From: a virus
Lineage: Duplodnaviria; Heunggongvirae; Uroviricota; Caudoviricetes
Virus record (IMG/VR): IMGVR_UViG_2563366805_000007
Reading direction: 5' to 3' (one strand)
DNA length: 33,977 nt
In this document: in pieces, positions 30,051 through 33,977 of the stretch
Position numbering within the stretch: the first letter of the stretch is position 1
How the letters are laid out: each line of letters starts with the position of its first letter
Position numbers and translations under genes: made by a program
Notes under the pieces: generated by a model
Told to the model about the DNA's origin: nothing
What the model saw: only the letters and a program-made list of their open reading frames with translations
Databases searched by the model: none

Positions 30051-32033
30051 TTATTTCCGTGCCTGTTTAGCCTTATTAACAAACTGCTGGAAAATAACGT
30101 CGTTTTCGCTCTGCGTTTCCTGTATGTCCTCCACGCGCTTGACGGTGTTGCCCAGGGTAAATACTCGCTCCACCACATGCCGCTCCGGCAGTTCTGCATG
30201 CTCAGTCTTCGGCAGCAGGTCATTCACCTCAATCGCCGTCATACGGTTCAGAGCCTTAGTCGCTTTCTTCGTACTCTTGATCATCTCGCGGCGTGCACGG
30301 TTGTGTTCACGTCCAGCCTCGGTATCGCCAAAGGCCACGGCGGCACGACACTCAGCCATGCAAAGGAAACGGCCGTCGAGGTCATAACAGGCGACTTCTC
30401 CGTGCAGGTTCCTTGGATCAAACCGGACGGTGATTTTGCGCGAGCGGTGGCTGACGAGCTGTTCACTCCAGTAAGTATTCTTACGGCCAAATAACGAGCC
30501 CCCGCACTCCATCGTAAATTCGCCTGTAGTCTTCACGCGTACAGCTTCCGCAGGCAGCATCAGTTGACGAATTTGCTCTTCGGTCATACGGGTGATGACT
30601 GACTGGCTGTAGCTGCGCTCAAACGCCTGGTCGAAGGACAGTTCCCCCCGGCACATCTCGGTCTCGCGCCCGGCCTTCGCGTTGAACATGGCGACACCTT
30701 CGCTGATGGTTTCCAGGAATGTATCCACATCCACCGCCAGGCTGCCGTAGTTCTCTGGCTTGGAGCTGACGTTTTCACCGGCAAATGCTCCAGCCAGCGC
30801 AGGATGTTTGTCGATATATTCGCCCAGACCGCCCACGCCGAAGGCACGTTCAACGGGCTTTGCCTGTCCCCAGCCCTTACCGCCAATCACCCCCGTCCAG
30901 TGCAGCTTCATTCCCAGCAGAGGGATGATCCCCATCGGGTCATCAGGTTTGACTTTGAAGCGGTAACGGTTAGGAACGCCACCGGACAGCCATTTATTTG
31001 CAGCAGCGCGGGTGTTATCGATGGTCACATGTTTAGGCTTACCGTAAGCGCGGATGGTATCCATCAGGGATAAACGGATGCTGTCACTGTTCTCCGACAA
31101 ATCAGCACGCCAGCCAATAATTTTGCGACTGTGGACATCCTGCCAGAACCACGTTTTAGGACGGATGATGTCGCCGTTAAACCAACGGACAAACACGTTG
31201 TGCTGGTAACCGTCGCCATTGATCCACTCCATCGCATGAAGATATGCCACGGTGCGCTGCTGCGACGGATACATCTGCGCCAGCGCGTTCTCGCCCTCAC
31301 GGGTGGCAACGACGATACGCGGATCAACTTCACGTTCTAGCTTGCGGCGCAGAGTGCGCTCAGCGGGAATAATCCAGCCATGAGCATCTGCCGCCTTTTC
31401 AAGGCGCTCATAGCTTTTGGAGAAGAACGGCGCTTCGTTTCGCAGATAATCGCCCAGGAAGAACTGCCAGGCATCTTCAGAGATATCGGCAGTCCGGCCA
31501 GTCTGACGTTTTTCACGCACACGGCGGTCAAGCAGTACCGGACCCCAGAGGTCAGGACTATGGTCTTTGACTTTGTAGTAAAGATTGCGCAGCGTACCTT
31601 CACTGATTTGCAGCTGTTTTGCTGCCAGCGTGATCGCCTTACGATTGCCGATGCCGGAAGCCATCAGTTCCGCCACCAGCGCGGCAGCTTTAGTCCGGCG
31701 TTCTGCATGCAGACGCTGCTCGCCGGTAGCTTTCTCCCATGCAGACCACAGTCGCTGGCGTTCCAGATCGTCAGCCGCCACGCGCTCAGGCTCCTGTGGC
31801 AATGTAATCAGCCCGGATGATGTTTCAATCAGGCCACGTGCGGCCAGCAGTTCAGCGCGGACTTCAGGTGGCAACACCGATATGTGGTATTCGAATGCTT
31901 TGGTGCCAGCACGTTTACGGCGTAGTTCACTACGTCCACTGACAAAAGACTCCAAATGTTTTCTGACGTTCTTTTCTGCATTAGGAAAAGAACAAATTCC
32001 TACGCATTCTTTTGCGGTAACCCAGAAATCCAT
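30051..32033 (-). CDS. A: MuA-like DDE transposase
   Basis: 660 aa; N-terminus MDFWVTAKECVGI..., internal ...WQFFLGDYLR..., ...HAMEWINGDGYQHNVFVRWFNGDIIRPKTWFWQDV..., ...GKGWGQAKPVERAFGVGGL... are co-linear with Mu A (from memory). Confidence 0.9.
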   Translation of the reverse strand: MDFWVTAKECVGICSFPNAEKNVRKHLESFVSGRSELRRKRAGTKAFEYHISVLPPEVRAELLAARGLIETSSGLITLPQEPERVAADDLERQRLWSAWEKATGEQRLHAERRTKAAALVAELMASGIGNRKAITLAAKQLQISEGTLRNLYYKVKDHSPDLWGPVLLDRRVREKRQTGRTADISEDAWQFFLGDYLRNEAPFFSKSYERLEKAADAHGWIIPAERTLRRKLEREVDPRIVVATREGENALAQMYPSQQRTVAYLHAMEWINGDGYQHNVFVRWFNGDIIRPKTWFWQDVHSRKIIGWRADLSENSDSIRLSLMDTIRAYGKPKHVTIDNTRAAANKWLSGGVPNRYRFKVKPDDPMGIIPLLGMKLHWTGVIGGKGWGQAKPVERAFGVGGLGEYIDKHPALAGAFAGENVSSKPENYGSLAVDVDTFLETISEGVAMFNAKAGRETEMCRGELSFDQAFERSYSQSVITRMTEEQIRQLMLPAEAVRVKTTGEFTMECGGSLFGRKNTYWSEQLVSHRSRKITVRFDPRNLHGEVACYDLDGRFLCMAECRAAVAFGDTEAGREHNRARREMIKSTKKATKALNRMTAIEVNDLLPKTEHAELPERHVVERVFTLGNTVKRVEDIQETQSENDVIFQQFVNKAKQARK

Positions 32034-32269
32034 TATGCAACCTCTTTGACTGATACAGCTTCATAACGTGAGGGCCAAATATCTCTGGGGGTAAGCCCCA
32101 GAAACTCAGCAATAATTTTTTCCCCTTTCGGCCAGTGGTGGCGGAATACATTTCGTAATGTTGATTCCGCTAATCCGTTGCTTCTGGAGAGCTGACTGGT
32201 AGTCATCCCACGTTTCCTAATCGCTGCTTTGATGTCTTCCGGGTGCCAGTCTTGGCTTTTGGTCATCAT
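32033..32269 (-). CDS. ner: Ner-like DNA-binding protein (early negative regulator)
   Basis: 78 aa; ...DWHPEDIKAAIRKRGMT...LRNVFRHHWPKGEKIIAEFLGLTPRDIWPSRY matches Mu Ner / Nlp family; its stop overlaps the A start (TAATG). Confidence 0.8.
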   Translation of the reverse strand: MMTKSQDWHPEDIKAAIRKRGMTTSQLSRSNGLAESTLRNVFRHHWPKGEKIIAEFLGLTPRDIWPSRYEAVSVKEVA

Positions 32270-32500
32270 TCTGCGATCCTTAAATGTTTACACGTTCAGG
32301 TCAGCAATATCGCTAACCACTACGAGTAAAGATTAGAACACAAAAGAACGAAAGTAAATACTTTTGCGTACTTTTATGGTTGATGAGGTTAACCATGATA
32401 TTTTATTTAAAATCAATTCGTTACTTGATTTTCCGTGGTTAATCACAAAAAAGTACCAGATGTATTTTTCAATAACACAGAAAAGTACGGTGAATGATAT
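32270..32500. promoter_or_regulatory. Divergent c / ner control region (operator, early promoter, probable transposition enhancer)
   Basis: AT-rich; GTACTTTT/AAAAGTAC motifs at 32359-32365, 32368-32375, 32449-32456 and 32481-32488, plus palindrome AAAGTAAATACTTT at 32351-32364; lies between divergently transcribed ner and c. Confidence 0.5.
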
Positions 32501-32963
32501 GGTTGATTTTAGTGAATGGGTGTCAGTTCAGGATTGTATTGGTCTACCAGGTTTCCCCAGTGGAGCGCCGAATGTCCGGCGGAAACTGGAACAACTTGTG
32601 AGTAATAATCCTAAGTTGAAACGTAAGAAGGCTAAATCGAAAGCATATGAATATCATGTATCGGTCTTGCCAGAAGAAACAAAGAAATTCTTGGGGGTAG
32701 AAGAGCGCTCAGTTATACCTGACTCAGCCTTATCGTCACCAAGCTCAACAGCTCGGGACCTATGGATAATGCTTTTCGACAACTTAACAGAGCGTCAAAA
32801 ACAGTATGTTATTAAGGTTTTCATGCAAGGTGGGCTGAACGCTTTAATGCCGATGGTAGCTGATTTGGAAGCCAGTGCAGATAGAGAGATTTTTGAACAA
32901 CGTGATCCCAATGAACAGATTCAAGCCGCGCCGAAGCTGAGCACGCGAAATAAAGCTGGCTGA
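32460..32963 (+). CDS. c: Mu-type repressor c (start uncertain; open frame from 32364)
   Basis: ...EWVSVQDCIGLPGFPSGAPNVRRKLEQL...KAYEYHVSVLPEE... is homologous to the N-terminal DNA-binding domain of the transposase in this window (FWVTAKECVGICSFP...KAFEYHISVLPPE), the known relationship between Mu repressor and MuA; transcribed toward the phage left end. Confidence 0.7.
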   Translation: MYFSITQKSTVNDMVDFSEWVSVQDCIGLPGFPSGAPNVRRKLEQLVSNNPKLKRKKAKSKAYEYHVSVLPEETKKFLGVEERSVIPDSALSSPSSTARDLWIMLFDNLTERQKQYVIKVFMQGGLNALMPMVADLEASADREIFEQRDPNEQIQAAPKLSTRNKAG

Positions 32964-33260
32964 TTGCAAAAGTGCTCAATTGGCTGGCTTTACCTTCGCA
33001 CCTCCTGTGGGCATTTTAAGCTGAGTTTAAATCCCGTTAAACGCTTTGAAATTAACTGCTATACGATCCAAATCTATGTGACACTTAACTGGCTTCGCTA
33101 TCGAATGATCCAAAATTGACGATATGCCAGATTTTCCACAAGTCGAGTAGCTTAACGTTGTGCGAAGCCTCACAACTCAAGCCTTCCTCCCGTTAATTCC
33201 CATGAATTCCCGGTTATTCCCGGGTTCTCTGTTTGATCCATACATCACTGTCACTAGTCA

Positions 33261-33265
33261 GTGGG
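33261..33265. repeat. Right copy of the 5-bp target-site duplication GTGGG
   Basis: Identical pentamer to 886-890, immediately outside the CA-3' prophage terminus at 33260. Confidence 0.6.
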
Positions 33266-33977
33266 GATGAAGTGTGGTGGTTCCGATGGTTTTTCTGGTA
33301 TCTCCGGCAACCCTGCAATGGGGCTGGTTTCTGACTGGTTGACAACGCTTGGTGGCGCTTCCGGGTTAGCAGAATTTCCAGAATTATGTGGGGCAGAAGG
33401 TGATATGGTTAAGCGTTGTATTAATCTTGAGGATAAAAAAAAGTTCCTCAATCTAATGCAAGGCTACGAAAAGACAGCGAACTTTTTCGATACCACCATT
33501 GCGGATAACCCAAGTTTTGGCAACATCGCGGATGGGTTGATTACTGACGCAATAAAATCTACCGGAGCAGCGAAAAAAGGCGGGCGAGCGCCAATTGTGA
33601 GTGTATGCGATTACGCTGAACCTATGCCCGATAGTGGATTATCGTTGGTGTGTACTCCGGGCAATGACGTGGACGCGGTAACCGGATTGGTAGCAGCAGG
33701 ATGTAATGTGGTTATCTTCTCGACGGGTCTTGGTACGCCCACCGGTAACCCGATTGTTCCGGTGTTAAAAATATCCACCAACAGCACGATTGCCAGACGA
33801 TTGTCTGACATGATTGATTTCGACTGTGGCCCAGTGATTGACGGCACTCCGCTGGAAGATGTGAGTAGAGAATTATTTGAAAAAGTTATTGAAACTGCCA
33901 GTAAGGACTACGTCGTGAAGGCAGACAAACTCGAACAGTTTGATTTTATGTTGTGGAAGCGGTCGTTAGACTTGTAG
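33261..33977 (+). CDS. UxaA/GarD-family dehydratase, C-terminal fragment (remainder of the gene split by the prophage)
   Basis: Contains the family motif MKCGGSDGFSGISGNPAMG (compare UxaA ...LECGGSDGLSGITANPMLG); in frame with the N-terminal fragment once the prophage and one TSD copy are removed; ends at the window edge. Confidence 0.7.
   Translation: MGMKCGGSDGFSGISGNPAMGLVSDWLTTLGGASGLAEFPELCGAEGDMVKRCINLEDKKKFLNLMQGYEKTANFFDTTIADNPSFGNIADGLITDAIKSTGAAKKGGRAPIVSVCDYAEPMPDSGLSLVCTPGNDVDAVTGLVAAGCNVVIFSTGLGTPTGNPIVPVLKISTNSTIARRLSDMIDFDCGPVIDGTPLEDVSRELFEKVIETASKDYVVKADKLEQFDFMLWKRSLDL

Follow-up and report, generated by a model that had tools for sequence, protein, structure and literature searches.

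The window, a 33,977-nucleotide stretch of viral DNA, carries at its right end the left end of a Mu-like transposable prophage, in reverse reading. An intergenic region there separates ner, the first gene of the early operon, and the transposase gene A from the divergent repressor gene c (Table 1). Ner is 49% identical to Mu Ner, and c aligns with Mu c over its full length, with 22% identity; compared with the MuA I-alpha structure 1tns, it gives a weak match (E 0.41). The phage end lies at 33260, where homology among four independent insertions ends exactly. Past this point the window continues into an interrupted host gene (33261-33977), which we take, by eye, to resemble an altronate/galactarate dehydratase (UxaA-like). 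Repeated units of the GGGAAT type near the left end (33185-33235), which read CCCGGGAATAACCGGGAATTCATGGGAATTAACGGGAGG on the minus strand, are mostly kept in the related prophages L006 and L002. They are probably the transposase end-binding sites, unlike the CGAAA-type consensus of Mu.

Three complete E. coli genomes carry identical copies of the element, at differing places in the chromosome. In strain ECONIH4 the same phage is inserted in the tail assembly gene of another prophage, and a heteroimmune relative in strain ECONIH5 interrupts narX. The insertion sites of the phage and its relative are consistent with near-random, Mu-like transposition. A sensitive blastn search with 32000-33260 against 50,697 phage records gave no match.

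Table 1. Genes, predicted control elements and conservation blocks at the left end of the prophage (positions in the window; changes are counted against L006 and L007)
Feature	Position	Strand	Remarks
Transposase A, 660 aa	30051..32033	-	Pfam PF02316, PF09039, PF02914, PF09299
ner, 78 aa, first gene of early operon	32033..32269	-	PF13693 HTH_35, E 8.6e-31
Imperfect palindrome GGTCAGC-AATATC-GCTAACC, in Pe leader	32299..32318		candidate Ner operator
Left block	32330..32375		changed: L006 1/46, L007 1/46
Pe -10 hexamer TAATCT	32330..32335	-	kept across the family; homology to Mu Pe
GTTCTTTT, one-mismatch copy inside Pe spacer	32342..32349	-	unchanged in L006, L007
Pe -35 hexamer TTTACT	32353..32358	-	TTTACA in L006 and L007
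ATACTTTT, copy adjoining Pe -35	32358..32365	+	unchanged in L006, L007
GTACTTTT, copy 10 bp from the ATACTTTT copy	32368..32375	+	unchanged in L006, L007
Spacer, sequence variable, length fixed at 65 bp	32376..32440		L006/L007 alignment; changed: L006 29/65, L007 18/65
AATCAATTCGTTA, exact match to IHF consensus WATCAANNNNTTR	32411..32423	+	between the two clusters
Right block	32441..32498		changed: L006 7/58, L007 5/58
GTACTTTT, copy in right, c-proximal cluster	32449..32456	-	unchanged in L006, L007
GTATTTTT, one-mismatch copy, inverted pair with 32449-32456	32462..32469	+	unchanged in L006, L007
GTACTTTT, copy ending 1 base before c ribosome-binding site	32481..32488	-	GTGCTTTT in L007
Shine-Dalgarno-like GGTGA	32489..32493	+	GAGGA in L006, L007; 5 nt before ATG 32499
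c repressor, 154 aa from best-supported start	32499..32963	+	PF02316, 35.6 bits (cut-off 23.3)
Phage left end	33259..33260		terminal ...CA; 5'-TG on - strand; homology break

The intergenic region is AT-rich (32% GC) and contains a repeated 8-mer. GTACTTTT occurs in three exact copies in the window (0.59 expected), all within 32358-32488. Since ATACTTTT adds a fourth, RTACTTTT has four copies in the whole window, in both orientations and all inside one 131-bp stretch, which bears out the claim of the sequence-only reading of at least four copies of an 8-bp motif in both orientations. None of 20,000 dinucleotide shuffles of the intergenic region reached four copies, and the local excess, corrected for testing every k-mer, has a p of about 0.007 for the 7-mer and about 0.012 for the 8-mer. 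With the one-mismatch copies GTTCTTTT and GTATTTTT, the six copies form two clusters, a left one at 32342-32375 and a right one at 32449-32488.

The sequence-only reading had also named a palindrome in this region, and AAAGTA-AA-TACTTT is indeed present at 32351-32364; the left arm of this palindrome is the Pe -35 hexamer read on the other strand. As a separate operator, AAAGTAAATACTTT was rejected, because base 32353 differs in both L006 and L007 in a way that improves the -35 and breaks the palindrome, which is thus probably incidental and not an element of its own. Two more candidates were rejected. AAAATCAA-N8-TTGATTTT (32409-32432) loses its second arm in L007 and its first arm is the IHF core, and GGTTAACCA and GGTTAATCA, considered as repeats, have no conservation in L006. 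Within the transposase gene, 31968-31993 form a perfect inverted repeat, GTTCTTTTC-N8-GAAAAGAAC. It spans roughly codons 14-22, in the immunity-variable part of the A N-terminal domain, and uses the same 8-mer as the Pe-spacer copy. It is present in L006 and L007 and absent from the heteroimmune L002 and L008, and could be an extra operator or a mere result of the coding sequence.

The left cluster covers a promoter that reads towards ner, TTTACT-17-TAATCT, which has a weak match to the sigma-70 consensus (7/12 positions). A promoter scan of the window reported nothing in the intergenic region and missed it. This element is taken to be the early promoter Pe because the arrangement is family-wide and has a counterpart in Mu. 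TTTAC(A/T)-17-TA(A/T)TCT is found at the same place in the relatives, among which the scan detects Pe in L008 and L012, and the Mu equivalent, TTTACA-17-TATCTT at 993-1021, lies within the annotated Mu early promoter. The Pe transcript would start near 32323. For the opposing promoter towards c, Pc, no candidate reaches the scan threshold, and the sole one seen by eye is TAATCA-17-TATTTT at 32440-32468 (7/12 positions).

Relatives with a similar repressor are few, since only seven homologues of c are present among the 5.8 billion non-redundant protein sequences searched. A single-protein scan of genome contigs found no relative, and a profile scan found 12 distant loci, eight of which are transposase N-termini and not c as judged by reading-frame length. 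When metagenome and viral contigs were scanned for the pattern of the operator layout, every copy that came up was identical to the window. Two homologues, P0002 (86% identity to c) and P0003 (84%), belong to the prophages L006 and L007, which have the same layout as the window. Absence of the motifs from relatives with the same repressor would speak against an operator role, and in these two prophages they are retained: the six 8-mers have a single change in 96 positions across both, as opposed to 47 changes in 130 positions of the spacer between the clusters. The left block also differs from the spacer in each comparison (Fisher p 1.6e-7 for L006 and 2.5e-4 for L007). This phylogenetic footprint is shallow, because the databases searched hold only three sequence variants of the immunity type.

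The spacer itself shows an unusual pattern. Free of indels, it differs from L006 at 45% of its positions and from L007 at 28%. This exceeds the divergence of c at third positions of codons, which is 18% and 14% (Fisher p 8e-5 and 0.02), and only the IHF core survives within the spacer. This suggests that the spacer is constrained in its geometry and not its sequence, or that it is a recombination patch. By consensus match, the IHF site is the only WATCAANNNNTTR in the whole window, and its core is kept in L007, L012 and L013 and has one mismatch in L006.

The organization of this region resembles that of phage Mu, where the operators O1-O3, or internal activation sequence, likewise lie between divergent c and ner-A-B genes. 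In Mu two clusters of short repeats with a CTTTT core surround an IHF consensus, with one of the clusters over Pe, as in the window. The sequence-only reading had linked the CTTTT core to Mu repressor sites, and reading the Mu sequence itself makes it visible there, in the same order and orientation. CTTTT occurs at 891, 906 and 922, followed by the IHF consensus at 947-959, AAAAG at 984 and 999, and CTTTT at 1004 and 1019 over Pe. The window, read from c to ner, has two GTACTTTT, the IHF site, AAAAGTAC and AAAAGTAT, the -35 and then GTTCTTTT in the promoter spacer, so that the order of sites and the strand pattern are those of Mu O1-IHF-O2/Pe. The distance of about 0.8-1.0 kb from the phage left end, which the sequence-only reading had compared with Mu, is also close. 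With the left end at 33260, the sites are 772-918 bp from it (right cluster 772-811, IHF 837-849, left cluster 885-918 bp), and in Mu the CTTTT cluster, IHF site and Pe-side cluster are at 891-926, 947-959 and 984-1023 bp.

There are also differences from Mu. The repeat is a longer and specific 8-mer, RTACTTTT, and A is 23-55% identical to MuA by segment, with about 55% outside the N-terminus. The cluster nearer to c precedes the start codon of c in the window but is part of the c coding sequence in Mu, the IHF consensus is on the opposite strand, and the gap from the IHF site to c is 76 bp, compared to about 18 bp in Mu. Equivalents of Mu O3 and Pc were not found in the region; there are no more clusters between Pe and ner. 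D108, a heteroimmune relative of Mu, has its own immunity-specific repeat, TGAAATCA, both between c and ner and across the start of c, as well as a Ner-side palindrome. This motif differs from that of the window and is without the CTTTT core, and the 1.6 kb of D108 that were read have no exact match to the IHF consensus.

Other heteroimmune prophages have the same architecture, with other repeated 8-mers at the same relative places. L002 (E. coli ECONIH5), L008, L009 (MN855778.1), L012/L013 and L015, all uncharacterised Mu-like prophages of Enterobacterales, share with the window the order of genes, the hexamers of Pe, the leader of ner, the place of the palindrome on the Ner side and the arrangement in two clusters, but each has its own repeated 8-mer and a c DNA-binding domain that is 45-55% identical. 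The repeated motif is AAAAATCGAAT in L002, AAAAGAAAG in L008 and AAAAGAAT in L012 and L013. L015 (Apirhabdus) has two occurrences of GAAAAGTATG, seen by eye in the printed sequence, and L025 (Aeromonas) has GAATCGGAA. L003 (3251-3434; E. coli VREC0864, NZ_LR536431.1) is a natural hybrid, which combines the Ner and A N-terminus of L002 with an unrelated XRE-type repressor and has a palindrome, GCGAAT-AAAA-ATTCGC, in its Pe spacer. L002 and L003 have identical Ner proteins and identical A N-termini but different repressors, and their sequences diverge right after the Pe -10. Across these sequences the motif appears to follow c and not Ner.

The transposase is related to the repressor in its DNA-binding region. 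The N-terminal 60 or so residues of A (about 31851-32033) are 48% identical to the c DNA-binding domain over 61 aa (E 2e-21), and the same comparison gives 41% in Mu and 53% in L002; this part of A is a paralogue of the c domain. Mu is alike in this respect, with a repressor from the same family and a transposase whose N-terminus is paralogous to the repressor DNA-binding domain. The A N-terminus of D108 also resembles its own repressor, a resemblance that the title of Mizuuchi et al. 1986 reports. Between the window and the heteroimmune L002, A is 70% identical in residues 1-40, 97% in residues 41-100 and 90% in the rest, and the low identity of residues 1-40 is the pattern expected if the domain reads immunity-specific DNA. 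In Mu, the enhancer overlaps O1-O3, has two clusters of MuA sites with an IHF site between them about 1 kb from the L end, and shares overlapping sites with the repressor (PMC3145075); it is bound by the MuA subdomain I-alpha (PMC3362531). The homology of the A and c domains, the layout of two clusters with IHF and the published work on Mu together make a dual operator/enhancer role likely in the window, and we lean towards the repeats acting also as a transposition enhancer.

The sequence-only reading left the start of c ambiguous among 32364, 32376, 32460 and 32499, and this affects how the right copies and the spacer are understood. If c had an N-terminal extension from 32364, 32376 or 32460, their conservation might reflect coding. 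All four codons exist in the c frame, a TTG at 32364 and ATGs at 32376, 32460 and 32499, and RefSeq/PGAP does call a 195-aa repressor from ATG 32376 (WP_016243429.1; 32376-32963; L001 3377-3964), which is labelled a "MerR family transcriptional regulator" in two genomes. The window, L006 and L007 moreover all keep the c frame open over the 47 codons that precede 32499, an outcome with a probability of about 0.02 per sequence. In Mu and most of the heteroimmune relatives a stop interrupts the frame 1-22 codons ahead of the start, so the open frame is treated as chance or shared ancestry. The ambiguity is largely resolved in favour of 32499, since the P0002 and P0003 homologues are 154 aa long, this start has a Shine-Dalgarno-like sequence while 32364, 32376 and 32460 have none upstream, and ATG 32376 reads GAT in L006. 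Substitutions in the spacer fall 11/10/8 and 8/5/5 by codon position, with no third-position bias, and the translated changes are non-conservative; in the first 64 codons of c they fall 5/4/15. Family members have just 4-15 residues before a conserved Trp, which also favours 32499. As no such frame would take in the copies of the left cluster at 32342-32363 either, an extended coding sequence is a highly unlikely explanation of the repeats, and the best-supported c start is 32499, not the 32376 of RefSeq. The repeats could also be sites for Ner, a Cro-like early regulator whose gene adjoins the region and which is a DNA-binding protein. L002 and L003 have different repeat sets with an identical Ner, however, and the Pe leader holds a separate palindrome, at the place of the Ner-side repeats of Mu and D108, which makes this reading extremely improbable. 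Each relative, and D108 too, has a palindrome of its own sequence at the position of 32299-32318, and those of L002 and L003 differ at one base. The palindrome in the window may be the Ner operator, or just as well a hairpin of the leader RNA. No RNA family in Rfam matched credibly (best match 13.5 bits, gathering score 77).

A different possibility is that c reads other sequences and that the repeats are sites for the transposase only, as an enhancer, or part of an A-tract or UP-like architecture of Pe. Two A-tracts phased by 10 bp upstream of the -35 are similar to an UP element. L003, with its XRE-type repressor and Mu-type A N-terminus, keeps a tandem CTTTT pair by the -35, GTCTTTTGCAATCTTTTAT, that is almost the TACTTTTGCGTACTTTTAT of the window, and in L002 the motif with the most copies, AAAAATCGAAT, is not the one seen in the pair at the -35, which reads ATCTTTTT and GTCTTTTG. 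Because the pair is kept in L003 despite the unrelated repressor, it may serve the transposase or the promoter, instead of or besides the repressor. Yet the same 8-mer recurs 80-120 bp away, inverted, beside the c start and far from Pe, and no other repeated motif is still present in L006 and L007. The variable bases by the T-tract change with the immunity type, and in Mu the repressor and transposase sites overlap anyway (PMC3145075). A role for the repeats that leaves out c is thus unlikely. Whichever protein uses the tandem pair, the overall classification is unaffected. Ner binding, coding constraint and chance are all poorly supported as explanations of the repeats.

The repeats are therefore best read as operators for the c repressor that control Pe, and this is very probable on the evidence of their position and conservation. 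The wider model, in which 32299-32498 controls immunity and early expression in a transposable Mu-like prophage by means of two operator clusters, is probable as a whole. The gene families, the two clusters with IHF, the homology of Pe and the conservation agree with the Mu-type operator region that the sequence-only reading had proposed, and the enhancer part of that proposal is likely by analogy. In the model, the left cluster lies over the Pe spacer, the -35 and the immediate upstream DNA of a promoter that reads leftward into ner-A-B, and the right cluster sits directly before the c start, ending 1 base before the ribosome-binding site. In a lysogen, c, a winged-helix protein of the Mu c family, would occupy both clusters, and a bend made by IHF in the spacer would allow bridging between them. 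Pe would then be off, and c would probably limit its own expression. In the lytic phase, the N-terminal domain of A would bind the same clusters and make them a transposition enhancer, so that repressor and transposase would compete for one piece of DNA. We infer the looping, the autoregulation, the enhancer activity and the assignment of each protein to particular copies.

A more speculative idea, which is rather doubtful at present, is that the sites are modular. The shared CTTTT would be combined with 3-4 adjacent bases that track the variable helix of the c and A domains, and CTTTT would probably be read by the conserved basic wing, (K/R)RK(R/K)...KAxEY. The hybrid L003 suggests that enhancer and operator sites may be separable and that the pair at 32358-32375 may be primarily a transposase site. 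If this were true, the family would be a natural recognition code for winged-helix domains of the Mu type and would offer a way to separate immunity from enhancer function. In that case the spacer, whose length is fixed while its sequence changes more quickly than synonymous sites do, would point to a constraint of geometry alone.

The predicted specificity, (G/A)TACTTTT, has not been described previously; the design itself is well known and ordinary in kind, and the established picture of Mu regulation is unchanged. The analysis defines the control region of an uncharacterised lineage of Mu-like prophages that transposes in E. coli. It corrects the annotated start of the repressor and offers the 8-mers, the promoter and the IHF site as concrete targets. 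It also supplies a heteroimmune panel whose repeats vary together with the repressor. These may be of use in annotating Mu-like prophages, in predicting immunity groups and in building mini-Mu-type tools with orthogonal repressor/enhancer pairs.
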